Positions 8,469 to 26,262 of a stretch of DNA of 51,707 bases are shown in pieces; position 1 is the first letter of the stretch, and each line of letters starts with the position of its first letter. The notes under the pieces were generated by a model that saw only the letters and a program-made list of their open reading frames with translations, was not told the DNA's origin and ran no database searches. A program made the translations under genes and the position numbers. The DNA is taken from positions 1 through 51,707 of the forward strand of contig JBOIEE010000011.1 in the NCBI GenBank assembly GCA_050740975.1, written 5' to 3'. The DNA is from Gammaproteobacteria bacterium. GTDB lineage: Bacteria > Pseudomonadota > Gammaproteobacteria > JBOHHR01.

Positions 8469-9956
8469 ATGCTCTTCAATTCCTACGAGTTCATTTTCGG
8501 TTTCTTGCCCATAACCTTGGCCCTCTATTATCTGCTCGGCCTGCTCGGCTTACCGCGTCCCGCCTTGATCTGGCTCACTGGCGCGTCGTTTTTCTTCTAT
8601 GGCTGGTGGAACCCATCCTATCTGCTGCTGCTCTTCGCCAGTATCCTTTTTAATTTCGGTGTCGGCGTTCTCTTGACTCGTGCCGCCCGCCAGGGTTCGC
8701 CGCTGCGCCATACGCTGCTGGCGTTTGGCGTCACGGGCAACCTAGCACTGCTCGGTTATTACAAGTACGCAGCCTTTTTTGTCTCCAATCTGGGTGCGAT
8801 CTCGGGGTTTGAGTTCCAGATCCAGGCCGTGGTGCTACCCTTAGGGATCTCATTCTACACCTTCACCCAAGTCGCCTATCTGGTTGATGCGACCAGGGGA
8901 GAAGCCGAAGACTACAACCTGATCTCTTACTGCCTGTTTGTCACGTTTTTTCCGCACCTCATCGCGGGCCCGATCATTCACCACCGGCAGGTTATGCCCC
9001 AGTTCGCCCGGTCTGGCACCTTCCGGTTTAGCCACGTGAATTTCGCGACCGGCATCACGTTCTTCGCCGTTGGACTTTTCAAGAAAGTCGTTTGCGCGGA
9101 CACCATGGGCACGTTTGCCTCCCCTGTCTTCGCCGCAGCGGCGGACGGGGTGGAGTTGAGCGCGGTTCGGGCGTGGACCGGCGTGTTGGCGTTTACGCTG
9201 CAGATCTATTTTGACTTTTCTGGGTATTCGGACATGGCCGTGGGATTGGCGCGCCTGTTCGGTATCACCCTACCGTATAATTTTAATTCGCCTTACAAGG
9301 CGGTTAACATCATCGACTTCTGGCGCCGATGGCACATGAGTCTGTCGCGGTTCTTGCGCGATTATCTCTACATCCCGCTCGGAGGCAATCGGCGGGGAGA
9401 GACGCGGCGCTACATGAACCTATTCCTCACCATGCTCCTCGGTGGACTTTGGCACGGCGCCGGGTGGACCCTTGTGGCGTGGGGTGCTCTGCATGGATTT
9501 TATCTGCTGGTTAATCACGCCTGGCACAGCCTGCGCGCCCGACTCGGCTTTCCGGTGGTGAGCCAAGGGACTCTCTGGGGCCGCAGTCTTGCGCGGCTGC
9601 TCACCCTGCTCTCTGTCATCCTAGGCTGGGTGTTGTTCCGCGCAGAAAGCATGGATACAGCCTTCAACCTGCTGTCCTCCATGGGTGGAAACCACGGGAT
9701 ATGGGTTCCAAGGGATTTGGAACCTGCGATGATCGAGCCACTGGGGGTCGGCGTCTTGGAGCAAGGCTCGCTCATTATTTGCTTATTGGCGCTCGCGGGA
9801 TTCGGTCCCAACTCGCAAGAGTCGATCGATGGAGCGCAGCCGAGCCGCTTGATCTGGCGTTTCAGCGCGCTGCAGGCTTCCATCGTCGCAACCCTCCTGC
9901 TGTTCTCGATCAGCCGGTTGTCGCAGGTCAGCGAATTCCTATACTTTGACTTCTAG
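8469..9956 (+). CDS. MBOAT family membrane-bound O-acyltransferase (AlgI/PatA/DltB-like)
   Basis: 495 aa, polytopic. It starts MLFNSYEFIFGFLPI and carries the MBOAT signature FWRRWHMSLSRFLRDYLYIPLGGNRRG with the conserved His. Confidence 0.9.
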   Translation: MLFNSYEFIFGFLPITLALYYLLGLLGLPRPALIWLTGASFFFYGWWNPSYLLLLFASILFNFGVGVLLTRAARQGSPLRHTLLAFGVTGNLALLGYYKYAAFFVSNLGAISGFEFQIQAVVLPLGISFYTFTQVAYLVDATRGEAEDYNLISYCLFVTFFPHLIAGPIIHHRQVMPQFARSGTFRFSHVNFATGITFFAVGLFKKVVCADTMGTFASPVFAAAADGVELSAVRAWTGVLAFTLQIYFDFSGYSDMAVGLARLFGITLPYNFNSPYKAVNIIDFWRRWHMSLSRFLRDYLYIPLGGNRRGETRRYMNLFLTMLLGGLWHGAGWTLVAWGALHGFYLLVNHAWHSLRARLGFPVVSQGTLWGRSLARLLTLLSVILGWVLFRAESMDTAFNLLSSMGGNHGIWVPRDLEPAMIEPLGVGVLEQGSLIICLLALAGFGPNSQESIDGAQPSRLIWRFSALQASIVATLLLFSISRLSQVSEFLYFDF

Positions 9957-10145: not shown

Positions 10146-10955
10146 CTAAAGCGCCGCGGATTCGAGCATGTGGTGGGTCGCTTGGCACTTTCTGTACAGC
10201 TCCAACGCTTCCGGCACTAGGGTAAAGGATTGGATCACCTTTTCAAATTCACCTCCCGAAGCGAGGATCGGAGGCAACTCCTGGGCAAGCTCCGTGACAT
10301 GCGCCCCGTGTTTTCGCGCGACCACAAGATAATAAAGATAATGCAGTGCTCGAATGACCAGGTTGGGATCGCTATAGGCGTCAAGAATGGGCACTAAAAA
10401 GGCAAGTTGCAGCGAGCGGGAACGCGCATCCAATATCAGCTCAGCGCCCTTCACCGTACAGATCATAGGAAGCGCTTTGGCCGTCTCCGCGTCATCGAAC
10501 CCGATGGCTGGCCACGGAATCTCAGGTTGGGGGATCCCGAACTTCTCCGCGAAAGCCCTTTGATAACACCAGGCGAGACTCGAGGCAACCGCGTCGTCCA
10601 CCGGTGCCGTGGCTGGATTTGAAAACTCACGCAACATCGGAACAAAGGCGCGCCGCAGATCCACCCGTGCGTGATCATTGCTCTGATCTACCAGTATGCG
10701 GTAGCCCAGCCCAGCGATAAGCACCACACGAGAAAGGGCTTCAAAATTCGGCAATTGGTTGAGCAACAGTCGTATCGCCCGCGCGTCGATGGCGGTTTGA
10801 GTCCATGCCAGAAACGCGATCAGGTTTCCCGTAATATACGTGTTTCTCGATCGCTTCCATGAGTTAAGGACGGCCTGCATCCGCTGTTCGCTTATTTCCT
10901 GCCCCTGAAACAACTCGCCCGCCATGCGGTAGATATGAGAGTTGAATGCGGTCAC
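10146..10955 (-). CDS. C-terminal (putative sensor) region of the NACHT protein, separated from it only by an in-frame TAG
   Basis: Same reading frame as 11016..12512 (12512-10146+1 = 2367 = 789 codons). The 60 nt between them translate as FLLAQYFALCLEWGHVEDFG with no further stop. The region looks helical and I could not recognise TPR, WD40 or LRR repeats. Confidence 0.6.
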   Translation of the reverse strand: MTAFNSHIYRMAGELFQGQEISEQRMQAVLNSWKRSRNTYITGNLIAFLAWTQTAIDARAIRLLLNQLPNFEALSRVVLIAGLGYRILVDQSNDHARVDLRRAFVPMLREFSNPATAPVDDAVASSLAWCYQRAFAEKFGIPQPEIPWPAIGFDDAETAKALPMICTVKGAELILDARSRSLQLAFLVPILDAYSDPNLVIRALHYLYYLVVARKHGAHVTELAQELPPILASGGEFEKVIQSFTLVPEALELYRKCQATHHMLESAAL

Positions 10956-11015: not shown

Positions 11016-12512
11016 CTACTGCCAATGGCGGTGGGAAAAGCGGACTTTTTCGGGCCCGGTAGCAAGGAACACAGTTCGTTGCAGCAGCGCGTTGCAGGTT
11101 TCCGGGTCGCCGGCCAAACGAAATCCCATGATGATGTCTTGCACTTCAGACCCGGCTCCGTGTTGCGAAAAAAACGCTTCCCACCGCTTACTGGCATCAC
11201 AAGCTTCAGTCTGCAGCACTTCCGTGCTGATCTCGCCGCGCGATCTTTGAAAGAAGAGCCATGCGATCAGTGTCAGAGCATAGAGCAGGTGATCGATTTC
11301 AACGACTCGTGCTGCTTTCGCGCGTACCCCGACCAGATTGCTGCGCCGAATGATGGTGCGTATCGTTTGGCCCAGGACCGAGCAGCGGGTCAAAAATTCG
11401 CGAGCGAATGCGACCTCGCGTTCCGGTTCATAGTTGGACAGGATAAGCGGTGTAAGTATGAGATTGACCAGTTCCCGATCCTCGATATCGGGTAGCCAGG
11501 CCTTGCATGCAGGGAAAAATCGTTCAGCCTGGGCCTCTGATAGACGCAGCACCTCAAAGATATCCTTGCGATCATCCGCTAAGCGTTGCAATCCCGGGAA
11601 GCCGGCGCGTATCGCCACGACAAAGGAAAGACGCGAATTGCTGCGATAGCGGTTTGCCGCCTGGCGCAGCATCGCAGTTACGGTGGACAAACCAATGCTC
11701 GGGTGATTGACCAAAAAATCATCCACACCGTCGAGAAACACGGTAACTGGGGTTCTTTGCAATCTGCTCTCCAGCCAATCCATGTCGTTTTCGGGCAGTG
11801 GGTAGAGGCTGTGCGCCCAGTTAACCCACCAACGCCAAAGGATGCTCCACAGGTCGAGGTCTTCGGTGAGGTCCGTTAAGGTCACTTGTTGCAGAGGGAT
11901 AAACAAAGGCAGGGGACGATTGTTCAGCGCCGAGGAGAGATACTCCCGTCCTAAGCGCCAAGCGATCATGCGCACGACTAGCGACTTGCCCACACCAGCC
12001 GCCCCGGTGATAACCATCTGCCGCGGCCGTTCTCCGCCAGTGTCTATTCGGCCCAGGACCGCATCGCGGATCTCGGTCTGGGTCCCCGAAAAAGCGGCCT
12101 CCAGACTCGGCGGTGGAGGATTATTTTGTGCCGACTCGCCTTGACCGATCAAAGACTTTATCGACGTCACCTTATTAACCTCGGCGATACGCTCCAAGCT
12201 TATGTCGGTCACGGTGAGCCCGATGTCTGATCCATAGCGGCTCACAAACTGCGCTACGATGGCGACGACGGGATCGCTGGCTTGCTTCGGGACCTTGACC
12301 GATTTGTGCGTGCCACGGAAGCAGAGATCGCGCTGGTTGGGATCCGTCACAATGGGCACCGACAAATCGGATTTTGCGTAGATGTCGTGCACCATGGGGT
12401 ATGGAACATCCCGCGCGTTCGACGCTTTCTGGTGCTCTAGAAATTCAGTTTCCAGTTCCAACAACCAGGGATTCTGCCACCGCAGGGCGACGAGAATGTC
12501 GTTCCATCCCAA
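11016..12512 (-). CDS. NACHT/STAND-type P-loop NTPase (NLR-like), truncated by a TAG at 11016-11018
   Basis: Walker A is MVITGAAGVGKSLV (coded at about 11981-12012). Walker B is VTVFLDGVDDF, followed by SFVVAIRAG. The ORF ends at ...VRFSHRHWQ*, inside the NACHT winged-helix F-x-H-x-x-x-Q-E-[FY]-L-x-A motif. The start is unclear: TTG at 12512 or ATG at 12395. Confidence 0.75.
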   Translation of the reverse strand: MGWNDILVALRWQNPWLLELETEFLEHQKASNARDVPYPMVHDIYAKSDLSVPIVTDPNQRDLCFRGTHKSVKVPKQASDPVVAIVAQFVSRYGSDIGLTVTDISLERIAEVNKVTSIKSLIGQGESAQNNPPPPSLEAAFSGTQTEIRDAVLGRIDTGGERPRQMVITGAAGVGKSLVVRMIAWRLGREYLSSALNNRPLPLFIPLQQVTLTDLTEDLDLWSILWRWWVNWAHSLYPLPENDMDWLESRLQRTPVTVFLDGVDDFLVNHPSIGLSTVTAMLRQAANRYRSNSRLSFVVAIRAGFPGLQRLADDRKDIFEVLRLSEAQAERFFPACKAWLPDIEDRELVNLILTPLILSNYEPEREVAFAREFLTRCSVLGQTIRTIIRRSNLVGVRAKAARVVEIDHLLYALTLIAWLFFQRSRGEISTEVLQTEACDASKRWEAFFSQHGAGSEVQDIIMGFRLAGDPETCNALLQRTVFLATGPEKVRFSHRHWQ

Positions 12513-13078
12513 TCCTTTTGCCCTTGGGTCACGAACCGAGCAAGCTTCAGAAAGGGCGACATCAGCGGGAAAATTGAATGATACGTAATCTTGGCAAAGG
12601 CAGTGATAAAGGGTGACCCTCCGCTATGCGGCACGGCAATGTTGATTACGTGGCGGGTTCGTAACCACAGCGAGGACGACGAGGAATCAAAGCCTCCGTT
12701 ATCGAGCTGAGTCTTAAGCTCTTGATACGCCTGTTTCAGCATCTGCTTGACCACGAGACCCCCGGTGCTGTGGGTTACAAACAAAAGCTGTCGATGAACA
12801 CCAAACTCGGTTTGTAACCAGATCCGCAGATCCTCTGCGGCCAACGGGATGCTGGAACGCTGCCAGATCTGGGATGGATAAGCGAAAGACACCGTATCTA
12901 CGTCGCTACCACAACTCTCCAGGATCCATTCCGGGACCTTGCCCCAGGTTCGACCGCAATCGCCAAATATCCCGTGCACAAAAACCAGCAGGCATCCGGA
13001 CGCCATCGGTTGGGCGCCCCGGTTCGCTTTGTGTACGATCCCGTATTTACTCGTGCTGGTCCAAAATGCTTGACTCAT
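12437..13078 (-). CDS. Alpha/beta-hydrolase, lipase/esterase-like (DUF676/PGAP1/SesB-like); probably the N-terminal effector domain of the NACHT protein
   Basis: LLVFVHGIFGDCGRTWGK is followed by the nucleophile elbow FVTHSTGGLVVKQ (a GxSxG variant, about 12760-12783). The likely ATG is at 13078 (MSQAFWTS). The longer track ORF to 13225 would overlap the fadD 3' end. The 3' end overlaps the NACHT ORF by 76 nt in the -1 frame. Confidence 0.65.
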   Translation of the reverse strand: MSQAFWTSTSKYGIVHKANRGAQPMASGCLLVFVHGIFGDCGRTWGKVPEWILESCGSDVDTVSFAYPSQIWQRSSIPLAAEDLRIWLQTEFGVHRQLLFVTHSTGGLVVKQMLKQAYQELKTQLDNGGFDSSSSSLWLRTRHVINIAVPHSGGSPFITAFAKITYHSIFPLMSPFLKLARFVTQGQKDWDGTTFSSPCGGRIPGCWNWKLNF

Positions 13079-13113
13079 TTGGCTTTCGTTCTTTGGAAGT
13101 GAGGTCGGACCGA

Positions 13114-14726
13114 TCACCGCCCGCGCAACTCCCGCCGCAGGATCTTGCCCACGCCCGATTTTGGTAAGCTTTCGAGAAACTCCACGTATTTCGGCACCTT
13201 GTAGGCCGTCAGTCGCTCTCGGCAATGGCCGCGGACCCCCTCAATGCTCAGTTGTGCACCGGTATTGGCCACAATAAACACCTTTACCGCTTCCCCTGAT
13301 TGCTCATCGGGCACTCCGACACAAGCGCTCTCTAACACTCCTTCGCATTGGGCCAGAGCCTCTTCCACTTCGTTGGGATAGACGTTAAAACCGGATACCA
13401 GGATCAGGTCTTTTTTACGATCAACGAGGTAGAAATATCCCTTTTCATCCATCCGCGCAACGTCTCCCGTTTTGAGAAACCGTCCAAGGTCATTACGTCG
13501 CAGGTCGCTTCCTCTCGGCCCCAATAGGCTTGCATCACCTGGGGTCCTTTGGCACACAACTCCCCGCAACTTCCAAGCGGAACCTCATTACCTTCTTCAT
13601 CCCGCAAAACGATCTCGGTCGACGGGACCGGCAGACCGATGCTCCCGCTGAAGGTCTTTGTGGCGTAGGGATTAATGGCTAACAAGGGCGATGTTTCCGA
13701 AAGCCCGTAGCCTTGCAATAAGGGGCAACCGGTAAGCTCAAACCACTTATCCGCCACGGCGTGTTGAATTGCCGCTCCGCCACCCATGGCAATTTTGAGC
13801 GCAGAGAAATCGACATCGCGGAAACCCTCGCCATTCAAGAGACGGTTGAAAAGCGTATTGACGCGGTGATGACGGAAAACCTCCATTTGCGGAGCTCCCT
13901 CACCAATGCAGACATATCACGGGGATCGGTAATCAACACATTCTGGGCCCCGAGATATTAAAAATGCCAAACAGTTAATCGTCAAGGCGAAAATATGGTA
14001 AAGGGGCAATGCGGTAACGACGATCTCTTTGCCTGTTTCGATTATCGGGCCCAGCGCGCTCGAGAACTGGAGTATGATCAGATTGCGGTGGGTTAGCATA
14101 GCGCCTTTAGAGATCCCGGTTGTTCCACCGGTATATTGCAAGAATGCGATGTCTTCGCCGGCTATCGGGACTTGCTCGAGACCAAGCTGCTTGCCGATGG
14201 CTAATGCGGCCGCGAATTGATCCCTTATACCCTCGCCCGGCTCCCCAGCCTGCGTGGACGGTAGATCGCCGGAGCGGGCGATAATAATAGTTTCGATCGG
14301 TGTATGGTGCCGGAGCTGCTGCAACCTGGGGAGGGAATCGCCGTGGATCACGATGGCCTTAGCGCCCGCGTCGTTTAGCTGATGTTCCAGCTCATCCTGC
14401 GTGTACAGCGGATTGATATTGGTGACGCGCGCACCGGTGCGCAGAGCACCCAGAAGGGCAATGGGGAACTGCGCCAGATTGGGTAGCATGATGGCGACGC
14501 AATCCTGCTTTTTTATACCCCGCGCCCTTTGCAAATAGGCGCCAAAATCGCGTGCCAGCACATCAAGCTCGGAAAAGGATAGAGTCGTGTCGCCGTTACT
14601 GAACGCTGGACGAGCGCCAAAGTTGCGAACGCTCTGCTCAAACAAGGCGATCAGCGAAGCGTAGGCGTCGGGATCGATCTCGTGGGGTACACCGGCCGGA
14701 TAGTGCTTAAGCCAGATCTTTTCCAT
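13114..14726 (-). pseudogene. fadD: Long-chain-fatty-acid--CoA ligase (FadD-like), split over three frames by two 1-nt frameshifts
   Basis: Track ORFs 13917..14726, 13404..13886 and 13114..13569 are consecutive FadD pieces. The first has MEKIWLKHYPAGVP and LQYTGGTTGISKGAMLTHRN. The second has NTLFNRLLN and GYGLSETSP. The third has [39 protein letters not shown] and [27 protein letters not shown]. Frame breaks lie at about 13955-13965 (A5 run) and 13477-13480 (A3 run). This may be an assembly artefact rather than a true pseudogene. Confidence 0.8.
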
Positions 14727-15152
14727 GGTGCTCTACCCTAGTGCTCTGTCTCTCTTATTTCGATGCCCCTGCAATTGTACGGCGCGGGTACGCAGCAAGA
14801 GTGAGCCTCTATTTCGAAGCAGACGCCGAGCTTGCCCCCAGAAACGGGATGCGTGCATTGGCGCCGCCTGCCGAAATGCAAATGCGTACGAAATAACGCC
14901 AAGCATCCATTATCCAGAGTATACGCGCGGGCGAGCTTTTTGGATTCGGCAGTACCGTAGCCGTGTTTAGCTCGGGCGCTATCAGCCCCATGAAGGCATC
15001 GCGAGATCCACCGATCCGTTAATTGCTTTTGCACACCTTCGGCCGCTATCGCCGGCAGGACGCGCACAGGTTGCCATTCTTATGCTTGGTGCGGATAATC
15101 GACAAACAAAAACGCATGTCGCAACGGGCGCCAGTCTTAGTGTGGGGTCTCC

Positions 15153-16211
15153 ATGTTTATCAACGGGTTGGGTACGGCGAATCCACCGCAACGTTACACG
15201 AAAATAGAATGTTGGGAAGCCCTGATGCGTTCTGAGTGGTTTTCAAGACTGGATCGCCGGGCGCGTTCGCTCGCGGAAACGGTGTTGCTGGGCAACAATG
15301 GCATAGAATCCCGCTGGCTTGCGCTCAACTCCTTGAGCGAAGCTTTTCGGATCGATCCCGATACGATGCATCGACGCTTTGAGTCTCATGCCCCCGCCTT
15401 GGCCGCGCAGGCCGCCGAGCGCGCATTGTCGGACGCACGCATCCTGCCCACCGAGGTAGACGCTGTGATCGTCAGCACCTGCACTGGGTATCTCTGCCCG
15501 GGTCTTAGCAGCTATGTAACCGAATGCTTGGGGTTGAGGCCTGATGTCCAGGCTTTCGACCTAGTGGGCCAAGGTTGTGTCGCGGCCTTGCCTAACTGGC
15601 GCATGGCCGACGCGCTGCTGGCGGCGGGATACTGCCGCTGTGTACTGTCCGTTTGCGTCGAGCTGAGCAGTGCCGCCATGTACCTCGATAATGACCCCGG
15701 GGTCTTGATTAGCGCGTGTTTGTTTGGCGATGGGGCGGGAGCCGTTCTACTCGGTGATAAGCCCAGCCCGCACCAACGTCGCATTGAGTGGAAGATCTGC
15801 TCCTCCGTACTAAACCCGGCCGAGCGCGATGCGCTGCGCTTTGAGCAACGGGGCGGCCTGTTACGCAATATCCTCACCCGACCGGTACCGCAACTCGCCG
15901 CAGAGCATGCCCAGCGGATCTTGGATCGAGTATTGGGCAATGAAGGGTTAAGCTACAGCGACATCAAGGCCTGGATCTGGCACGCGGGGGGACGTGATGT
16001 GCTGGTAGCGCTTCAGACCAGGCTTGGGCTCAGCGCCGCTGAGCTTCGTTACAGTGCAGCCATGTTGCGCGAATACGGCAATCTCAGCAGCGCCTTTGTC
16101 TATTTCGTATTACAGGCGGCGCTCGCCGACGATGCACCGGGTGGATGGTGGTGGGTGTCCTCGTTTGGCGCCGGATTTAGCTGCTATGGCGCCATGCTCG
16201 AGGTGGCCTAA
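15153..16211 (+). CDS. Type III polyketide synthase (chalcone synthase-like)
   Basis: 352 aa. The start MFINGLGTANPPQRYT resembles other type III PKS N-termini. The active-site Cys context is VSTCTGYLCPG. The His motif is WIWHAGGRDVL (HPGG-like) and the Asn motif is EYGNLSSAFVYFVL (GNMSS-like). The C-terminal part is SSFGAGFSCYG. Confidence 0.8.
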   Translation: MFINGLGTANPPQRYTKIECWEALMRSEWFSRLDRRARSLAETVLLGNNGIESRWLALNSLSEAFRIDPDTMHRRFESHAPALAAQAAERALSDARILPTEVDAVIVSTCTGYLCPGLSSYVTECLGLRPDVQAFDLVGQGCVAALPNWRMADALLAAGYCRCVLSVCVELSSAAMYLDNDPGVLISACLFGDGAGAVLLGDKPSPHQRRIEWKICSSVLNPAERDALRFEQRGGLLRNILTRPVPQLAAEHAQRILDRVLGNEGLSYSDIKAWIWHAGGRDVLVALQTRLGLSAAELRYSAAMLREYGNLSSAFVYFVLQAALADDAPGGWWWVSSFGAGFSCYGAMLEVA

Positions 16212-16236
16212 CACGCCTCTTCTCTTGGCACGACCC

Positions 16237-16941
16237 ATGACCATGCAACGCCGCGTACTGCCCGAATTGCTGGATGAGCTTCCGGCGAATGATCCACGGG
16301 CGATTCGGGCGAGAGGCGATTTGCAACGCGTCAACCGGGTAATGGGTGCTTTATCGCTGATGTTGCGCGCCGTGGATCACAGCATAATACCGCAGCCGCC
16401 ACGGAGCATCGTTGAGCTGGGGTCGGGCGATGGGACATTCCTATTGCGCTTGGCGCGAAAGCGAGCCACCTGCTGGCCGGGTGTGAGGATCACGCTTTTA
16501 GATCGGCAGCTCCTGGTACGCCCTGAGACGATACAGGGTTTTGTGCGCCTGGGTTGGCAAGTCGAGGTGGTCACCTCGGATGTGTTTGATTGGCTAGCAC
16601 AACCGCTAAACGAGCGCATCGACCTGTTGCTGGCTAATCTGTTCATCCACCATTTTTCCCAAGAGCGTCTGTCCTGTTTGCTGCAAGGCATAGCGGCACG
16701 TACCCACTCGTTTCTGGCCTGCGAACCACGCCGCACCACATTAGCGCTCATCGGTAGCTACCTGATTGGCCTTATCGGCTGCAACGCGGTGACCCGTCAT
16801 GACGCGATCCTGAGCGTACATGCGGGTTTTCGGGCAAAGGAGCTGTCTGCGCTGTGGCCCCAGGGGGAGGATTGGTTTTTTCACGAATGGCCAGCGGGGC
16901 TATTTAGCCATTGTTTCTTAGCAATTAGAGCAACCCGTTGA
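16237..16941 (+). CDS. SAM-dependent methyltransferase
   Basis: Motif I is IVELGSGDGTFLL. The ATG at 16237 (MTMQRRVLPELLDE) lies just after the PKS stop. The track ORF start at 16024 would overlap the PKS gene by 188 nt. Confidence 0.65.
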   Translation: MTMQRRVLPELLDELPANDPRAIRARGDLQRVNRVMGALSLMLRAVDHSIIPQPPRSIVELGSGDGTFLLRLARKRATCWPGVRITLLDRQLLVRPETIQGFVRLGWQVEVVTSDVFDWLAQPLNERIDLLLANLFIHHFSQERLSCLLQGIAARTHSFLACEPRRTTLALIGSYLIGLIGCNAVTRHDAILSVHAGFRAKELSALWPQGEDWFFHEWPAGLFSHCFLAIRATR

Positions 16942-16945
16942 GCTG

Positions 16946-18196
16946 ATGGAGAGTGTGTACGAGGCGATCATCATAGGTGGCGGGCCAGCGGGCGCGAGCA
17001 CCGCCATCTTATTAGCACAAGCGGGATGGTCGGTCGCGCTGGTGGAAAAGCAACGCTTTCCCCGACGTAAGGTATGCGGCGAATGCATTGCGGCGCCCAA
17101 TCTTCCGCTGCTTGACGCGCTGGGAGTAGGCGCAGCGTTCGCGGACCTTGCCGGGCCGGAACTGCGCCGTATCGGCGTATTTGCCGGTGGCAGGATACTT
17201 TCCGCCGAGCTACCGCGCTTTGGGGATGGCCGGTACCCATGGGGCAGGGCCCTAGGCCGAGAATATTTAGATGATCTCCTGTTGCAACGCGCGGCAGAAG
17301 CAGGCGCCTGTGTTTGGCAGCCCTGGGGCGCACGAGAAATCGGGTGGGATTGCGGGAGCTATCATTGTCGGGTCCAATCCTTGGGCTCCGGCGTGCACCG
17401 AGCGCTTGTAGCACCTGTTCTGGTCGCGGCAGACGGCTCGTGGGAGCCGTGCCTATGGGCACGCAGTCGGGTTCCCCGGCGGCCGGGTGATCTGTTCGCA
17501 TTCAAGGCAAACTTCTTAGACTGTGACCTGGACCCCGGGCTGCTACCGGTGTTGGCCTTCCCTGGAGGCTACGGCGGGATGGTGGTGGCGGATCATGGTC
17601 GGGTCACGATGGCCTGCTGCATACGCCGAGATGCTTTGCAGAGATGCCGAGATCGCCACCCGCGAGCGAAGGCGGGCGAGTGCATTCAGGAATACCTACA
17701 AGAGAGTTGCCTCGGCGTCCGTCGGGCATTATCTGGCGCAAAACGCGAAGGGGTTTGGTTGAGCGCAGGCCCTGTTCGGCCCGGGATCCGCGCAACCTGG
17801 GGCAAAGACGGTGTATACATGGCGGGCAATGCCGCCGGTGAGGCCCATCCGATCATAGGCGAGGGGATCAGCATGGCGATCCAAGCAGCCAGCTTGTTGT
17901 CCGAGCAACTCGTCTCACATCGCGCGGGGCTGTTATCCGGGAGGGCGATCGTCGGCGCGGGGCAGGAATACGCTTTTCGTTGGCGCAACAGTTTCGCAGC
18001 GCGCATTCGCGCATCGGCCTTACTGGCGAATCTCGCTATGCGGCCAGGCGCGGCGGCGCCCCTGCTGCCCCTCCTTCAGCGTTGGCCAACGGTCCTCACC
18101 CGAACGGCCCGGATGAGCGGCAAGGTGCGACCTCTGGTAACTCAAGCAACGAGGGCGCGCACGCTAGAATACACGCACACAGAAGGGCTCAGATGA
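16946..18196 (+). CDS. FAD-dependent oxidoreductase / flavoprotein monooxygenase (geranylgeranyl-reductase-like fold)
   Basis: The N-terminal dinucleotide fold is YEAIIIGGGPAGASTAILLAQAGWSVALVEKQ. The GD-type motif is MAGNAAGEAHPIIGEGISMA. It starts 4 nt after the methyltransferase stop. Confidence 0.75.
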   Translation: MESVYEAIIIGGGPAGASTAILLAQAGWSVALVEKQRFPRRKVCGECIAAPNLPLLDALGVGAAFADLAGPELRRIGVFAGGRILSAELPRFGDGRYPWGRALGREYLDDLLLQRAAEAGACVWQPWGAREIGWDCGSYHCRVQSLGSGVHRALVAPVLVAADGSWEPCLWARSRVPRRPGDLFAFKANFLDCDLDPGLLPVLAFPGGYGGMVVADHGRVTMACCIRRDALQRCRDRHPRAKAGECIQEYLQESCLGVRRALSGAKREGVWLSAGPVRPGIRATWGKDGVYMAGNAAGEAHPIIGEGISMAIQAASLLSEQLVSHRAGLLSGRAIVGAGQEYAFRWRNSFAARIRASALLANLAMRPGAAAPLLPLLQRWPTVLTRTARMSGKVRPLVTQATRARTLEYTHTEGLR

Positions 18197-18459
18197 CTAC
18201 GCTCGAAAGGTTACAAGGGGTCATGCTCAAGAATTTCGGTCTGAAACCGGAAGCGCTTGCGCCCGAGGCGCGGCTTGAGGATCTCGACATTGATTCCCTA
18301 GGTGTGATCGATCTGATGTTCTGTGTGGAGGACGAGTTCAAGATCACCGTGTCACGGGAGCAGGTCGAACTTGACACCATACAAGACGTCGTCACCTACA
18401 TCGATCATCTCATCGCCGAGCAGAAGACAACGGTAGCCCAAGAGGAGACAGCGCCTTGA
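18193..18459 (+). CDS. Acyl carrier protein
   Basis: 88 aa from the ATG at 18193 (an ATGA overlap with the preceding stop). The phosphopantetheine site is LEDLDIDSLGVIDLM (DSL). The rest of track ORF 17980.. is an out-of-frame overlap with the oxidoreductase. Confidence 0.8.
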   Translation: MTTLERLQGVMLKNFGLKPEALAPEARLEDLDIDSLGVIDLMFCVEDEFKITVSREQVELDTIQDVVTYIDHLIAEQKTTVAQEETAP

Positions 18460-19685
18460 GGCGAGTGGTAGTCACGGGCCTCGGTGTGATCTCTCCGTTG
18501 GGCAATGAGCCCTTCATTTTTTTTGATAACCTCATGGCAGGCAAATCCGGGATCAAGCGCATCGACGCTGACTTTTGCCAGCGTCTGTGCACCCCGCTCG
18601 CCGCCTCGGTTATTTTCGATGCGAGCGCTTATTTCCCGGCGGCCAGATTACGGGCGCTCGATCGCGTCAGTCAGTTCGCACTGGCCGCCGCTGGCCAGGC
18701 CCTGGAGGACGCTGGCCCCGGGTGGAGCGATGCGGACAGGGTGCGTACCGGCGTGTTTCTGGGCACTGGTATGGGCGGGGCCAATACCACGGACGAAGGC
18801 TACCACACTATTTACGCAAAAGGCTCCGATCGGGTCAAACCCTATACCGTGCTAATGGCGATGACAAACGCACCCGCATCCTGGATCGGTATCGAGTATG
18901 GGCTGAGGGGGCCTAATGTCACGGTCTCCACCGCCTGCTCGTCTTCGGCCGTAGCAATCGGAGAGGCCTGGCGCCGGGTAAAAAGCGGTGATGCAGACAT
19001 CATGCTTGCGGGCGGTGCAGAAGCGCCACTGAACTTTGGCACGCTCAAGGCGTGGCAGGCATTGAAAACCTTGGCGCTTGAAGACGCCGTAGACCCGTCG
19101 GCCTCGTGTAAACCCTTTGCAAAGGATCGGACGGGCCTGGTGTTAGGTGAAGGCGCCGCCATTTTGGTGCTGGAAGAATATCGCCGCGCGGCACGCAGGG
19201 CCGCGCGGATTTACGGTGAAATTGTGGGCTACGGGTTGAGCACGGATACAGCCCATATTACCCGGCCCACAGTGGAGGGGCAAGCGCGGGCGATGCAGCT
19301 GGCAATAGAGTCCTCTGAACTGGACGCTAATCAGATAGACTACATCAATGCCCATGGTACCGGTACGCTGCAGAACGATGGAGTAGAAACTTCGGCTATT
19401 AAACATGTATTCGGTGAGCAGGCCTACCGCATCCCGGTCAGTTCGACCAAGTCCATGCACGGCCACCTGTTGGGCGCCGCGGGTGCAATAGAATTCGTTG
19501 TCACCTTGTTGGCGATGCAAGCGAGCGCAATACCACCGACGATCAACCTGCATACACCCGATCCCGATTGTGACCTGGATTATGTGGCAGAGGGGGGCAG
19601 GCTAGAAGTCGAAACCAAGGTCGTTATGTCAAACTCATTCGCCTTCGGAGGAACGAATGCGGTCCTGATCGCGCGAAAACTGTAG
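18456..19685 (+). CDS. Beta-ketoacyl-ACP synthase, KAS I/II (FabF/FabB-like) family
   Basis: It starts (TTG)RRVVVTGLGVISPLGN. The active-site Cys is in VSTACSSSAVAIGEA. The two His motifs are INAHGTGT and KSMHGHLLGAAG. It ends NSFAFGGTNAVLI. There is a TTGA overlap with the ACP stop. Confidence 0.85.
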   Translation: MRRVVVTGLGVISPLGNEPFIFFDNLMAGKSGIKRIDADFCQRLCTPLAASVIFDASAYFPAARLRALDRVSQFALAAAGQALEDAGPGWSDADRVRTGVFLGTGMGGANTTDEGYHTIYAKGSDRVKPYTVLMAMTNAPASWIGIEYGLRGPNVTVSTACSSSAVAIGEAWRRVKSGDADIMLAGGAEAPLNFGTLKAWQALKTLALEDAVDPSASCKPFAKDRTGLVLGEGAAILVLEEYRRAARRAARIYGEIVGYGLSTDTAHITRPTVEGQARAMQLAIESSELDANQIDYINAHGTGTLQNDGVETSAIKHVFGEQAYRIPVSSTKSMHGHLLGAAGAIEFVVTLLAMQASAIPPTINLHTPDPDCDLDYVAEGGRLEVETKVVMSNSFAFGGTNAVLIARKL

Positions 19686-19740: not shown

Positions 19741-20580
19741 TCAGTGCAGTCTCTTTTTGGCCTTTTCGACTTCTAGTAAGCGCTCCCGCAGGTATTCCCG
19801 ATCCGGACCAGGGGGAGCTAGCGAAAGGTAACGCTTATAGTCCTCACTGGCCGCTTTATGGCACTCCAGCTTGTCGTACACGAATCCACGATCCCGTAAC
19901 TCCTGTAGATCATTTGGATTAACCACCAGCATATGCTGGATCACATTTAATGCCTTTAGATATTCTTCTGATTTTACGTACACCGCCTTTAGGTTTCGCA
20001 GCATTCGCGAAAGCACGTCACGCTTGCGCGCCGGAGTCAGTAAGTGGGTCAGGTCAATCGGGTCACTTGAATGGAACTCCATAAGACTACTTAAGTGGCC
20101 TAAGAGATCTTTCTCACTCAGTGAGCGACCTCCCGCAAACGGATCCAATACGATGTCACCCCCTTCAACGTTCATTTTGACTAAGAAATGTCCCGGAAAT
20201 AACACCCCCGCCAACGGTAACCCGATACGCTGTCCAATCTCAATGTAAATCATGGAAAGGCTTATAGGGATCCCGGTTTTGCGCTCCAACACCTCGTTTA
20301 AGAAGCTGTTCCGCGGATCATAGTATTCGTCAATGTTTCCGGCGAATCCCTGTTCTTCAAAAAGGAAACGGTTGAGCTCAAAGATAACGTTCGCCACGGA
20401 TGCGCCTGGAACGAGTCGCTTCTTGACCACAGCGGCCATTTCATCGAGTCTGGACAAGTAGCTATCGACTCGCAGGTCAGGATATTCCGACTGAGCAAAT
20501 AGCAAGGCCGCTTCGGCCAAGTTTATTAGGCTATCCGGTCTAGTGACCGCAGCGTTTAGGCGAAGAAGGCTTTTTTCCAT
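19741..20580 (-). CDS. SirB1/YchA-like protein (transglutaminase-like N-domain + TPR)
   Basis: LINLAEAALLFAQSEYPDL, YYDPRNSFLNEVLERKTGIPISLSMIYIEIGQRIGLP and VLFPGHFLV are followed by a TPR-like C-terminus. The likely ATG is at 20580 (MEKSLLRL). The track ORF extends to 20775. Confidence 0.6.
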   Translation of the reverse strand: MEKSLLRLNAAVTRPDSLINLAEAALLFAQSEYPDLRVDSYLSRLDEMAAVVKKRLVPGASVANVIFELNRFLFEEQGFAGNIDEYYDPRNSFLNEVLERKTGIPISLSMIYIEIGQRIGLPLAGVLFPGHFLVKMNVEGGDIVLDPFAGGRSLSEKDLLGHLSSLMEFHSSDPIDLTHLLTPARKRDVLSRMLRNLKAVYVKSEEYLKALNVIQHMLVVNPNDLQELRDRGFVYDKLECHKAASEDYKRYLSLAPPGPDREYLRERLLEVEKAKKRLH

Positions 20581-20859
20581 ATCGTTTCGAACGCAACGTT
20601 TATTCCAATCTTGTGGAAGAACGTAGAAAAACCAAGACAAAGCGTTAAAGGCATATTCATTGCCTGCGCAAGAGGTGATGCAAAAACTAGTGGGCCTATC
20701 AACACACTCGATAAGCGCTGATGAGCGCTTGGCCGTTCCAGAAAGTTTTAGAGCAAGACCATCGATTTCATGCAATCAATTACCCCTCTTGTCTATTAGC
20801 TTTTATAATCTAAGAAAAAACAAATTCTTACTCGATCACGGATTCGATTTGATGCCACC

Positions 20860-21687
20860 ATGTCGCAGCTAAAGACCCTCATGTTTGACGTCGATGGAAC
20901 ACTTGTTGACACTGAAGAAGTGCATCGTCAGGCGTTTAATCTAGCTTTCCTGGACTTCGATCTCGACTGGCAATGGACACCGCATCTCTATAGCGAATTA
21001 CTCGCTATATCGGGGGGCCGAGAACGTATCCATTCCTATGCCACGCATCTCGGACAGGCTGCCAAGAAGACCCACAATTTCAACGAGTTTGTGCTCCGTG
21101 TGCATCAGCGCAAATCGGCCCACTATGCCCGCTTGATCAGTAGTGAAGAAGTACCCTTGCGCCCTGGCATCAAACGTTTGCTGAATGAGGCCTTGGAACG
21201 AAACATAAAGCTGGCTATAGCCACGAGTACATCAATGGTCAATGTGAAAACGTTGTTGGACTATCGTCTACCTCCTGATTGGACGTCTTGGTTTGAGGTC
21301 ATTGCAACGGCAGACACCATTGCCAAAAAAAAGCCTTCTCCCGACGTCTACCACTTTGTGCTAAATGTGCTCGGTCAAAAACCTCAACATTGCGTAGCGA
21401 TTGAGGACACAGAAAGCGGCAACACAGCGGCCCTTCACGCGGGGCTCACCACGGTAATCACCCTCCATGCATTAACCCGTGGTAGCAAATTTCCAGGTGC
21501 GTCTCTGGTAGTTGATCACTTAGGAGAACCCGGATTACCGATGACCATATTCAGTAGCCAGAGTCTCAATACGGCCACCGCCACTCACGTTGATTTGCGG
21601 CTGCTTCAGCACGTACTCAGTGTAGCGATTCCTTGTCGCCAAAACGCAGATGCAACGCGCTGTGCCTGCCTTGGGATAGTTGAATAA
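20860..21687 (+). CDS. HAD-superfamily phosphatase, CbbY-like
   Basis: Motif I is LMFDVDGTLVDTEEVHRQAFNLAF. There is also IATSTS, KKKPSPDVY and the motif IV region AIEDTESG. Confidence 0.7.
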   Translation: MSQLKTLMFDVDGTLVDTEEVHRQAFNLAFLDFDLDWQWTPHLYSELLAISGGRERIHSYATHLGQAAKKTHNFNEFVLRVHQRKSAHYARLISSEEVPLRPGIKRLLNEALERNIKLAIATSTSMVNVKTLLDYRLPPDWTSWFEVIATADTIAKKKPSPDVYHFVLNVLGQKPQHCVAIEDTESGNTAALHAGLTTVITLHALTRGSKFPGASLVVDHLGEPGLPMTIFSSQSLNTATATHVDLRLLQHVLSVAIPCRQNADATRCACLGIVE

Positions 21688-21700
21688 CTCTCGAACCTTC

Positions 21701-22237
21701 TCACCAATAATACCTCCGGCCAAAATGGAAGCCGTAGAAAAACGGGTAAGGCCGCAAGGAATAGTATGGATAATAGTAATAGGGAGAGTAACGATAGGCG
21801 TACCGGCTGTAATCTGGCCACAGATAGACGGTTTCGGCCTTAACTACGGGATACCCATACGACTTCTCGCCAATCTTTCGCGTAATCTGGCCTTCGATCA
21901 CCCCATAGACAGTCATCTCCCGATCCGTTTTGTAGACGTCCGGATCTAGGAATCCTTCGACCCGCGCTATAAACCGCCCTGGCGAATAATCTAAACCTTG
22001 TGGCCGTCCGGAACTTCCCAACTGTTTCGCAACAACAATCAGTAACGTGTGATCTTCCTTGTTTTCGATTCGAACTATGGACCCACCCCATCTAACCAAC
22101 TCACCTCGACGATTTTCCGCATCCTTCTGTACGGAGCTTATCGAGGGATCACCTAGGGGAGGGACTTTAATCTGGGGCGGTACGCTGGCGCAGCCTGCAG
22201 CTAAAAGCACAAAGCATAAAATAGTCTTAGCCCGCAT
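21701..22237 (-). CDS. slp: Slp family outer-membrane lipoprotein
   Basis: The lipobox is FVLLAAGC|AS. Slp-like core sequences are VRWGGSIVRIEN, GRFIARVEGFLDP and VYGVIEGQ. The ATG is at 22237, or at 22264 in the track. Confidence 0.7.
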   Translation of the reverse strand: MRAKTILCFVLLAAGCASVPPQIKVPPLGDPSISSVQKDAENRRGELVRWGGSIVRIENKEDHTLLIVVAKQLGSSGRPQGLDYSPGRFIARVEGFLDPDVYKTDREMTVYGVIEGQITRKIGEKSYGYPVVKAETVYLWPDYSRYAYRYSPYYYYPYYSLRPYPFFYGFHFGRRYYW

Positions 22238-23672: not shown

Positions 23673-25046
23673 TTAGTTTGTGTCCGCTCTCAGCACCTCT
23701 TCCTGGCCCTGGGTGTTCACAGTATACAGCAACACAGGACGCCGCCATACCTTCGATAGGTAGCCCAATACCTTGCGCGCTGAGTGCGTATCGAGACCTC
23801 TTCCGTCAAACACGTGATCTTGTCGCAGCACTAAAGTGCCGTCGGTTTGCAGCTCGGAAATATAAACCCTGGGGGTTCCGAAATTGTATTTTGGCCTCAA
23901 AATCGCCTCATGAAGGGCATCTATGTCCCATTCTTCGACGGTGATTTCTCCACTACGCTTCGCTGTGTAGGTGAATAGCCCTAATTCTCTGGCCGTGTCC
24001 ACATCCAAGTAATTGCGCACAAAACCGGTGTCTTCCTCCTCTCGCATGATCTTGCGGGCATGATCGAGGCCCTGCTCTTCTATGATTTTATCCCACAAGC
24101 TAAAGCCGATGTGATACGGATTGAGTGCCAGCGCGACTTCGTGCTCACCCGCGAAAGGACGCACGACATCCGAATGGATCTTTATGGCGTCTAGGTATTC
24201 TTCATCCGGCAGGAAACTAGCCTCTCGCAGCAACCTGGCGTGCCAATAGGAAGCCCACCCCTCGTTCATGATGTTGCAACAAAATACGGGATGAAAGTAG
24301 AAAGACTCCTCTCGCACCGCCAGAAAGATGTCTCTTTCCCAGTCGTCCAGCTCGGGTGCATAGTGGGCGACAAACCACAACAGGTCATATTCCGGATGCG
24401 GAGGCATGGGAGCGCGTCGATACTTTGGTTTATGTGAGGAGGGCGGGCTTTCTCCGGGCAGGTTTGTGAACCGTTCCTTGAATTCGTCCTTGGAGAAAAG
24501 AGCATCGGATTTCAGATATTTATCGAAAAGTGGCCGGCGCAAGCTTTTGCTGTAATCGATATGCTGCTCGAGGGCTAAAGCCGCATCCAGAACTTCTTCC
24601 ACACGCTTGACCCCGTGCTCATTGATGGACTGCTCGATCTGATGCGCATGTGCGGCGGCTTGCTCAACGATTCGGTGCCCCACTTGATCCTGGGCCGTTT
24701 TAAACAGCAGATTGTTCTTGGCAAAGTCTGCGTGGCCGAGCACGTGCGCTACTACCAGGGTATTTTCCTGTAGCGAGTTGGTGTTGGACATATACGCCCG
24801 AACTGGGCTACCCGGAAACACCACCTCAAATATCCTCGAATGGCCCATTCTGTGCTGGACCAGTTCGTAGATATATCGCACCCCAAAGGACCAATGCGCC
24901 ATACGCACCGGAAGTCCGTAGACCGCCACCTCCATCATGAACGACGGAGGGACAATCTCAAATTCTACTGGATAGAAATCTAGCCCCAGGGACCGAGCCA
25001 TGCCCTCCAGTCGCCCGAGGTATCCTCTGAGAGTATCCTCCTCCAT
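23673..25046 (-). CDS. ycgB: SpoVR/YcgB family protein
   Basis: [46 protein letters not shown] and [15 protein letters not shown] are typical of SpoVR. The ATG at 25046 lies 5 nt after the yeaH stop. The track start at 25124 overlaps yeaH. Confidence 0.85.
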
Positions 25047-25050
25047 TAAC

Positions 25051-26223
25051 TCAGGACAGCTCGGTGCTTGCCTGATGCTGGAATAGACCTTTAATCGCTG
25101 GCCAGATATCTTCGTAACCGCCAAGCGGATAGCTGCCTACACCCAAACCCCGTCTTACCAAGCTATCGAACAGCCGTCCCGTTTCGGAATGCGATACTTG
25201 CTTTTGGAGGGAACCGGTCTCCACGTATCCGATAAAATTCATCAGCGCGGACAATTCATTTAAAGCGGATGCCGCCGGCCCCCGGTCCGCAATAAAATTG
25301 TCACCGTCGGACGCATAGAACAAATAGCCATTGTACCGATAAGAATCAAAGCGGGATTGAAAAAGGTCTAGCACAACCTTGAATGCACTCGAAGCCTGAG
25401 TACCTCCTTCGGCAGTCACGTAAAAGAATTGCTCCTCCGAAAATTCCCAGGCTGTGCTAGTATGCGCGATGAATACCGTATCCAGCTGGATATACTGCCG
25501 CCGCAAGCCCTGCAGTGCCCAAAAGAAAAACGTCTTGGCGAGCTTGCGGTCTTCTTCGCCCATGCTCGATGAAACATCCATCGCAAAAAAAACCACAGCG
25601 CAAGTCGCCGGACGGCGGCGGCGCGAAAGCTGGCGAAAGCGCAAATCGTCATTCGCAAAGCCCGGTCCATCGGGTTGAACAGAGCGTCGTTTGATCGCCT
25701 CCTTCATGGTGCGTCTCCTATCCAAACGAGAGCGTACCCCGCGCTTGTCCCATCCTTCCCGCACGAATTCATCGTGCGCCAATACGGTGCCGGGCTTGGG
25801 TTTCAGCCTCGGTAACTGCAGTTCCTCCCAAAGCCAGTCGATGATATCGTTGATTTTAAGCTCGATAAAAAACTGAAATCCGCCCTCGTCTGTACCTGCA
25901 CCGCGGCTTCTGCCCTCCCCTAAATCGGGCACCAACACATCCCCGGGTTTAACTTGTCCTTTGGCCCCTTGTCCCGCCCGAACCTGCTCCTCTGAGCGGC
26001 GTAGGCGAAAGCGGCTATGTTCCAAGAAGCGTACAGGCACCCGTATGGCCCGATCGCTAGGACGCGTGATCACGTCCGGGCCGGCGATGATTTCCGGCAG
26101 ATGCGCTTTTACCGCCTCACGGATTTTTTCGTTATGCCGCAACCAATCGCGCGGACCCCGGGAGAAAAGCTCATACCATCCCTTATTCGCAGTACCGATA
26201 GAACGTTTAGGATCAAAACCCAT
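25051..26223 (-). CDS. yeaH: YeaH/YhbH (DUF444) family protein
   Basis: 390 aa between the prkA-like and spoVR-like genes. It has a vWA-like MDVSSSMG motif and the YASDGDN motif. Confidence 0.8.
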   Translation of the reverse strand: MGFDPKRSIGTANKGWYELFSRGPRDWLRHNEKIREAVKAHLPEIIAGPDVITRPSDRAIRVPVRFLEHSRFRLRRSEEQVRAGQGAKGQVKPGDVLVPDLGEGRSRGAGTDEGGFQFFIELKINDIIDWLWEELQLPRLKPKPGTVLAHDEFVREGWDKRGVRSRLDRRRTMKEAIKRRSVQPDGPGFANDDLRFRQLSRRRRPATCAVVFFAMDVSSSMGEEDRKLAKTFFFWALQGLRRQYIQLDTVFIAHTSTAWEFSEEQFFYVTAEGGTQASSAFKVVLDLFQSRFDSYRYNGYLFYASDGDNFIADRGPAASALNELSALMNFIGYVETGSLQKQVSHSETGRLFDSLVRRGLGVGSYPLGGYEDIWPAIKGLFQHQASTELS

Positions 26224-26262
26224 CGCTAACGACCAACCTGTGATTACATGCTCACCTGGTTT

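Follow-up and report, generated by a model that had tools for sequence, protein, structure and literature searches.

Among the described operons that combine a polyketide synthase (PKS) of type III with a methyltransferase (MT) and a flavoprotein, the hidABC genes of Cyanobium sp. LEGE 06113 with the hid-like cyanobacterial clusters, and the mtr-fdo-t3pks operons of the Planctomycetota, are closer in gene content than srsABC of Streptomyces griseus to the cluster described here. This cluster occupies positions 15153-19685 of a 51,707-nucleotide stretch of a gammaproteobacterial contig (JBOIEE010000011.1), and the whole of this stretch of DNA is called the window below. On balance, we take the region to be an operon that is complete in itself and moves horizontally, and whose type III PKS builds a small lipid; in it a core trio (PKS, MT and flavoprotein) is joined by a starter-supply module consisting of an acyl carrier protein (ACP) and a beta-ketoacyl-ACP synthase (KAS). 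The product would most likely be a methylated, flavin-modified phenolic lipid.

The hid clusters, like that of the window, encode a type III PKS, a soluble S-adenosylmethionine (SAM)-dependent MT and a flavin adenine dinucleotide (FAD)-dependent oxidoreductase. HidC, HidA and HidB make hierridins, HidA methylating 5-pentadecylresorcinol (PMC6836626), and HidB has been assigned the ring hydroxylation (PMC6836626, PMC8086630). The order hidC>hidA>hidB, which is one of two known for the hid genes (PMC8086630), is the PKS>MT>FAD order of the window. The hid clusters possess neither ACP nor KAS, whereas the window cluster has both, and the likeness is one of gene content. The Planctomycetota operons, again compared by gene content, also consist of an MT, an FAD oxidoreductase and a type III PKS, but in the reverse gene order and lacking ACP-KAS. 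The PKSs of Gimesia maris and Rhodopirellula baltica make C15/C17 alkylresorcinols in Corynebacterium glutamicum, co-expression of mtr and fdo results in methyl-alkylresorcinols, and the role of the Fdo flavoprotein is still unsettled (PMC10896814). The actinobacterial systems srsABC (S. griseus) and pkqABC (Mycobacterium smegmatis, Streptomyces sp. MNU77) are operons of the same three kinds of gene, likewise without ACP-KAS, which convert an alkylresorcinol to alkylquinones proposed to be alternative electron carriers (PMC9927152, PMC10896814). Since the window MT is of a different fold family than SrsB, the window operon is not a member of the srs/pkq group.

The arsABCD cluster of Azotobacter vinelandii provides a different parallel, the coupling of type III PKSs to a dedicated starter supply. 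In it we take ArsA and ArsD to be dedicated fatty-acid synthases accompanied by two PKS paralogues, and we know of no methyltransferase or flavoprotein gene in this cluster. The in vivo substrates of ArsB and ArsC are believed to be long-chain thioesters bound to ACP (PMC8086630). By comparison the window cluster has only a discrete 88-aa ACP and a KAS II; because there is no dedicated multi-enzyme fatty-acid synthase, the operon is not of the ars type. Discrete ACPs coupled to a FabF-like KAS are represented by NodF/NodE and AcpM/KasA, private pairs which borrow housekeeping reductive enzymes to make acyl chains of special length or unsaturation, and which feed Nod factors or mycolic acids and not a type III PKS. 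In the literature we found no paper characterising the proteobacterial five-gene cluster, its clade, or any operon in which a type III PKS is joined by a pair of discrete ACP and FabF.

Re-reading of the sequence gave five open reading frames (ORFs), all on the + strand, preceded by a promoter-like element:

15071..15099, + strand: promoter-like element (TTGCCA-17 nt-GATAAT), 54 nt 5' of the PKS start codon, with 10/12 consensus matches
15153..16211, + strand: type III PKS, 352 aa, with Cys142-His277-Asn310 and gatekeeper Phe191
16237..16941, + strand: class I (Rossmann) SAM-dependent MT, 234 aa, with ELGSGDG and invariant HHF and CEPRR
16946..18196, + strand: FAD-dependent oxidoreductase, geranylgeranyl-reductase-like, 416 aa, with GGGPAG
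18193..18459, + strand: discrete ACP, 88 aa, phosphopantetheine site Ser35 (DSL)
18456..19685, + strand: FabF-like beta-ketoacyl-ACP synthase II (KAS), 409 aa, TTG start, with Cys161-His300-His337 and Lys332

The PKS stop codon (TAA, 16209-16211) is separated by a 25-nt gap from the MT start (ATG at 16237), and the MT stop codon (TGA, 16939-16941) by 4 nt from the ATG of the flavoprotein gene at 16946. The remaining genes overlap, flavoprotein stop and ACP start in ATGA (18193-18196) and ACP stop and KAS start in TTGA (18456-18459); KAS ends in TAG (19683-19685), and the next gene downstream (19741-20775) is convergent. The longest MT frame opens with a TTG at 16024, within the PKS gene, but in the family alignment all homologues begin at the position of ATG 16237, which was therefore taken as the start. 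The spacing of the junctions is typical for translational coupling, and the five genes are probably co-transcribed. An earlier note on this DNA had described the five genes, these junctions and a set of motifs for each product, and had treated the genes as one unit; genes, spacing and motifs are all present as given there, and the single unit is borne out by the coupling, by the promoter-like element shared with two related loci, and by a gene order conserved across bacterial classes.

In a consensus scan the region contained no more promoter-like sites or terminators than shuffled controls, so that the element at 15071-15099 owes its weight to conservation only. Both of its hexamers are invariant in the two related loci L001 and L002, although further upstream L002 is unrelated sequence. 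Similarity to L002 starts only about 30 nt upstream of the element, which places the left edge of the conserved cassette near 15040-15070. The G+C content of the cluster is 59.8% against 55.6% for the rest of the window, and drops to 49% just downstream (20001-22000), a contrast which is compatible with acquisition of the cassette.

The product of the first gene matches the Pfam families Chal_sti_synt_N (1.8e-11; 44.4 bits) and Chal_sti_synt_C (9.7e-13; 48.8 bits), in both cases passing the cut-off of 27 bits, and FAE1_CUT1_RppA (1.7e-16; 60.9 bits), which also passes its cut-off. Its best Pfam and PDB matches are proteins of the chalcone/stilbene-synthase family. An identity as FabH or KAS III was rejected, the corresponding models scoring under their cut-offs (TIGR00747 fabH, 77 bits against 292; PRK09352, 90 bits against 249). 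The motifs GQGC (Cys142), WHAGG (His277) and YGNLSS (Asn310) are present, and a HMMER alignment sets these three residues against the catalytic triad, and Phe191 against the gatekeeper phenylalanine, of stilbene synthase 9uub; in the numbering of alfalfa chalcone synthase we take these positions to be Cys164, His303, Asn336 and Phe215. All four residues are at least 95% conserved among 81 family members. The proposal that the first gene specifies a type III PKS with a Cys-His-Asn triad, and not a FabH, is thereby confirmed and extended to the gatekeeper.

A scan of one genome per species revealed 350 relatives of the PKS, the best 80 of the 350 being 64-95% identical to it. By its sequence the protein belongs to a sharply separated clade, the members of which are 58-95% identical and occur in Gammaproteobacteria, Betaproteobacteria and Verrucomicrobiae. 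In annotated plasmid records the proteins of Caballeronia and Burkholderia are 63-65% identical, and the next ones, DpgA and unnamed type III PKSs, about 31%; among the type III PKSs compared none outside the clade exceeds about 31%. Between classes the identity is still 58-72%, and one Verrucomicrobiae genome extends this to a different phylum.

Gene content was read by tblastn of the window proteins against 80 related loci. In every locus long enough to show them, the genes follow one another as PKS, MT and flavoprotein, and the identities to the window proteins are about 45-65% for the MT and 46-61% for the flavoprotein. The trio is followed by ACP and then KAS (about 35-56% and 52-72% identical, respectively) in 47 of the 63 informative loci. 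These five-gene loci span the Lysobacterales, Burkholderiales, Steroidobacteraceae, Woeseiaceae, Gallionellaceae and Methylophilaceae. All-against-all clustering of the ORFs in 81 loci showed no conserved neighbour beyond the five genes; the other ORF "families" are antisense or alternative-frame ORFs lying over the five genes, and a regulator, transporter, acyl-CoA ligase or phosphopantetheinyl transferase was accordingly rejected as a cluster gene. Cultured carriers are Caballeronia sp. SBC2, Burkholderia sp. PAMC 28687, Polaromonas spp., Caballeronia sordidicola and Ferrovum myxofaciens, the last of which carries the trio only. The RefSeq names of the cassette genes in the cultured strains are generic, and the Burkholderia MT is annotated as a shortened "hypothetical protein".

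Five-gene cassettes are also found on large plasmids of Caballeronia sp. SBC2 (locus L081, 8001-12708; positions 699882-704589 of plasmid pSBC2-3) and Burkholderia sp. PAMC 28687 (L082, 8001-12755). The plasmid cassettes are flanked by genes for a site-specific integrase and for IS66 and IS5 transposases, and the unit therefore appears to move horizontally. In a contig from a Verrucomicrobiae metagenome-assembled genome (MAG; L086, 4949-9209), a PKS gene whose product is 58% identical to that of the window overlaps by 4 nt a gene for a 617-aa fusion protein, the N-terminal half of which is of the window MT family while the C-terminal half is a flavoprotein with PRxRVCGE and G-D-A...P-x-x-G-x-G. 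The fusion constitutes independent evidence that MT and flavoprotein work with the PKS. This locus has no ACP-KAS pair. The next gene in L086 is convergent and encodes a type II NADH:quinone oxidoreductase (NDH-2); since this adjacency occurs in L086 and in none of the other loci, it was set aside as a weak hint of a quinone at most.

The second gene product has only weak Pfam matches, to Methyltransf_25 (21 bits, below the cut-off) and Methyltransf_12. It carries the SAM motif ELGSGDG at residues 60-66, and HHF and CEPRR are invariant in the alignment of its family. The AlphaFold2 model (predicted local distance difference test [pLDDT] score 92.4) has the seven-stranded Rossmann methyltransferase fold, and the top Foldseek matches are small-molecule O- and C-methyltransferases with modest template modelling (TM) scores of 0.55-0.63. 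The sole NCBIfam match is to PRK06202 (NF004851), which extends over nearly the full length but at 58.8 bits does not reach the cut-off of 243; judged by sequence, the window MT is a distant relative of PRK06202 and not a member. SrsB is of the isoprenylcysteine-carboxyl-methyltransferase type (PMC6669644), whereas the window protein has only class I Methyltransf_25/12 matches and a soluble Rossmann model, and orthology with SrsB was rejected. The comparison with srsABC that had been drawn from the sequence consequently holds as a functional analogy, but not as one of orthologous genes.

PRK06202-type MTs stand in PKS>MT>flavoprotein operons on plasmids of Deinococcus sp. QL22 (L084, 4995-7976) and Microvirga terrae (L085, 4989-7479). 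The Deinococcus MT scores 318 bits against PRK06202, above the cut-off, and that of Microvirga 109 bits; their pairwise E-values with the window MT are 9e-6 and 2e-4, respectively, the alignment covering the distinctive C-terminal half. PRK06202, named merely "hypothetical protein", thus appears to be the MT partner of type III PKS genes in distant phyla, and the model could bear a more informative name. With a profile of the family to which the window MT belongs, 438 clusters formed at 50% identity are reached at E <= 1e-30, and the system is common in environmental bacteria.

By analogy we suppose that the operon takes the same course as the hid, Planctomycetota, srs and pkq pathways. Primed by a long fatty acyl thioester, the PKS would extend it with about three malonyl-CoA units; cyclisation would give an alkylresorcinol, an alkylpyrone being less likely. 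Methylation of the ring by the MT would come next, and the flavoprotein would modify the ring, most likely by hydroxylation to give a methoxy-hydroquinone or quinone, following the logic of hidABC, srsABC and pkqABC. With housekeeping FabD, FabG, FabZ and FabI acting in trans, the KAS would lengthen an acyl group carried on the private ACP, and the pair would in this way supply the PKS with a starter whose chain length or beta-keto state is not one made by general fatty-acid synthesis. Phe230 of the PKS, which is at least 95% conserved among the 81 family members, aligns (HMMER) with a residue of 9uub that we take to match Gly256 of alfalfa chalcone synthase, and the position is probably also that of ArsB Trp281. 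The latter has been linked to resorcinol formation (PMC9927152), and Phe230 may be a hint as to the mode of cyclisation. Some type III PKSs take ACP-bound starters (PMC8086630), and a dedicated ACP and KAS for starter supply, as had been suggested for this cluster, is a reasonable reading. We infer an alkylresorcinol-type pathway because operons with the same gene content make such lipids; imperfect as the analogy with srsABC is, this is the best available interpretation.

Several observations weigh against it. The nearest named or solved type III PKSs that we compared share only about 30% identity with the window PKS, and solved structures give about 104 bits at best; because of this distance the starter and the cyclisation cannot be read from homology. 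No member of the PKS clade with a known product was found. The flavoprotein scores best with reductase-family models (GG-red-SF and MenJ), and does not possess the strong match to classical aromatic hydroxylases seen in its Deinococcus counterpart. The cluster encodes no acyltransferase, ketoreductase, dehydratase, enoyl reductase or thioesterase, and as a consequence KAS and ACP alone would stop at 3-oxoacyl-ACP. A quarter of the related loci have no ACP-KAS.

The flavoprotein matches FAD_binding_3 in Pfam (6e-20, 72 bits), carries GGGPAG at residues 11-16, and shares with its family the invariant elements K42-V-C44-G-E-C47 and GNAAGEAHPIIGEGI. The best NCBIfam family is GG-red-SF (TIGR02032), the geranylgeranyl reductase (GGR) superfamily, with 83.7 bits against a cut-off of 158.8, followed by the model for QhpG, a GGR-like monooxygenase (65.5 bits, also below its cut-off). 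Foldseek comparison of the AlphaFold2 model (pLDDT 82.8) gave equally good matches, with TM about 0.7, to variant-B halogenases, 3-hydroxybenzoate 6-hydroxylase, GGR, PhzS, PqsL and UbiH, so that a relationship to hydroxylases, reductases or halogenases would each agree with the predicted fold. By comparison, the flavoprotein of the Deinococcus operon is a classical FAD_binding_3 hydroxylase (180 bits), while that of the Microvirga operon is of the same GGR-like type as in the window, with PRxKVCGE. The earlier note had proposed a hydroxylated product; since the protein scores best against the GGR superfamily and QhpG, and not against the classical aromatic hydroxylases, a hydroxylase function is an assumption.

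It is conceivable, though in our opinion rather unlikely, that the same PKS lipid is handled by a GGR/MenJ-type reductase, which would saturate a side-chain C=C or reduce the ring or pyrone, leaving a methylated alkylresorcinol or pyrone and no hydroquinone or quinone. Besides the GGR and MenJ matches and the Microvirga counterpart, such a role is suggested by the invariant K-V-C-G-E directly past the ADP-binding fold, a position at which archaeal GGR has its catalytic-site cysteine (RCGEG motif), by the resemblance of GNAAGEAHPIIGEGI to the GDAA..P.TG.GI motif of GGR, and by the presence of GGR structure 3oz2 among the top structural matches. However, the GGR score is below the cut-off, QhpG, a true monooxygenase, comes nearly as high, and the structural matches to 3-hydroxybenzoate 6-hydroxylase, PhzS, UbiH and PqsL are as good as that to GGR; furthermore, the flavoproteins of hid, srs and pkq have been assigned ring hydroxylation (PMC6836626, PMC9927152).

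Variant-B flavin halogenases are the top PDB matches of the flavoprotein in both sequence and structure, which made a halogenase tempting given the ACP. This candidate was rejected because the protein has no WxWxIP motif (regular-expression search), an arginine apparently replaces the catalytic lysine, and the flavoprotein is kept in loci without ACP. The sequence FPGGYGGMVV sits where the halogenase motif is expected (read by eye, with no alignment). The family consensus, as we read it, has GPELRRVG, with Arg and not Lys, at the expected site of the halogenase lysine, which we presume to lie about 30 residues past the GxGE strand.

A second alternative concerns the PKS itself, which, like DpgA or PhlD, might use malonyl-CoA alone and give a small aromatic that is not a lipid, a dihydroxyphenylacetate or phloroglucinol derivative which is subsequently methylated and oxidised, with ACP-KAS serving some other step. 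The DpgA model (NF042429) is the only strong NCBIfam match of the PKS (152.4 bits), and DpgA proteins, at 29-31% identity, are its next-best annotated relatives in the plasmid records. The score lies far under the cut-off of 425, however, and DpgA is no nearer than the other type III PKSs compared (about 30% identity). The genes dpgB, dpgC and dpgD accompany dpgA, but they are not among the conserved neighbours of the window PKS; on these grounds, the score and the neighbours, the PKS was not identified as a DpgA. The conserved partners, an ACP and an elongating KAS of the fatty-acid type, point to an acyl chain, and alkylresorcinols are the products of operons with this gene content (PMC10896814, PMC6836626). 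We consider a product of the DpgA/PhlD kind very unlikely.

The last two genes of the cluster encode recognizable fatty-acid-synthesis components. The ACP matches PP-binding (1.1e-10) in Pfam, in NCBIfam it reaches 51 bits with ACP models, short of the housekeeping cut-offs, and its PDB matches are ACPs, AcpM among them. The KAS matches ketoacyl-synt (1.1e-48) and Ketoacyl-synt_C (3.2e-37); it scores 476.5 bits with TIGR03150 fabF, just under the equivalog cut-off of 493.75, and 473.6 bits with PRK07314, for which the cut-off of 387 is passed. Against the FabF-type KAS II chain 4ls5 it scores 355 bits with all catalytic residues aligned, and its sequence fits a competent FabF paralogue and not the housekeeping enzyme. 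Acyltransferase, ketoreductase, dehydratase and enoyl reductase domains were found neither in the window cluster nor in any conserved neighbour among the 81 loci. The comparison with Azotobacter ars that had been offered is, as a result, a loose one.

In a neighbour-joining tree of the PKSs the three-gene loci are scattered among the five-gene lineages. The ACP-KAS module is therefore accessory, and the distribution fits its repeated loss; the earlier picture of a cluster with its own acyl-ACP supply has to be amended on this point, since the pair is missing from 16 of the 63 informative loci and from the Verrucomicrobiae locus. That ACP and KAS are merely adjacent fatty-acid-synthesis paralogues for membrane lipid remodelling, with no role in the PKS pathway, would agree with these absences and with a KAS that is a near-canonical FabF, but is highly improbable, given that start/stop overlaps couple the flavoprotein, ACP and KAS genes, that ACP-KAS follows the trio in the same order in the 47 loci of two proteobacterial classes while other neighbours vary, that it accompanies the trio on plasmids amid mobile-element genes, and that the KAS and ACP score below the fabF equivalog and housekeeping ACP cut-offs, respectively.

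Returning to the phenolic lipid, one could speculate on its function. Lipids of this class made by type III PKSs occur in the cyst envelopes of Azotobacter, contribute to beta-lactam tolerance in Streptomyces, and participate in low-oxygen respiration in Mycobacterium. A methylated alkyl-hydroquinone or quinone might be to proteobacteria and verrucomicrobia what the polyketide quinones are to actinobacteria, made by non-orthologous enzymes and acting as an auxiliary membrane redox carrier or antioxidant, with ACP-KAS tuning its tail, but we regard this as doubtful. If it were true, the polyketide-quinone idea would reach beyond the Actinobacteria, and such a redox lipid would be common among the Beta- and Gammaproteobacteria of soil and fresh water, with mobile elements as its means of spread; if the product is not of the quinone type, the locus would be one further alkylresorcinol-type cluster. 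The analysis defines a large and unusually well conserved clade of such operons in environmental Proteobacteria, with accessory enzymes which differ from those studied in Actinobacteria and with a private ACP-KAS pair. Because cultured carriers exist, product and role are directly testable.

The context of the operon is that of ordinary chromosomal Gram-negative sequence. The window contains genes for LptD, a hybrid PAS sensor kinase/response regulator with LuxR-type (GerE) output and an MBOAT protein, as well as tryptophan dioxygenase, PrpC/PrpD-like proteins, LigD, GpsA, iPGM, a CtpA-like protease, a GGDEF-EAL protein and DsbC; it has no Rfam matches and no tRNAs. The nearest relatives are MAGs of uncultured Gammaproteobacteria, with 95% PKS identity in L001. 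The ORFs at 7358-8434 (+ strand, 358 aa) and 10146-10955 (- strand, 269 aa) have no Pfam match at E <= 1e-5 and <= 1e-3, and the former lies before the gene for the MBOAT-family acyltransferase (8469-9956). About 4 kb downstream of the cluster is a PrkA-DUF444-SpoVR trio (23673-28218, - strand), presumably a stress/starvation operon of the yeaG-yeaH-ycgB type, for which no link to the cluster was seen.

On the other side, and divergent from the operon, is a gene for a FadD-like long-chain acyl-CoA ligase (13114-14726, - strand), which is broken into three frames (14726-13917, 13886-13404 and 13569-13114). Relative to L001, where the orthologue is intact and about 540 aa long, it has single-base indels near 13958, 13864 and 13480, together with two in-frame deletions, so that either the gene is a pseudogene or the assembly contains indel errors. 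The gene was not counted as a member of the cluster, as among the loci compared it adjoins the cluster only in L001, the upstream flank of L002 being different sequence, and it is frameshifted in the window. Next to it, at 11016-13225 (- strand), are ORFs for an alpha/beta-hydrolase (262 aa) and a STAND/NACHT NTPase (498 aa), which share 76 nt; in L001 their place is taken by one ORF of at least 805 aa. This split is apparently a second frameshift in the neighbourhood, whereas the five cluster genes are intact.

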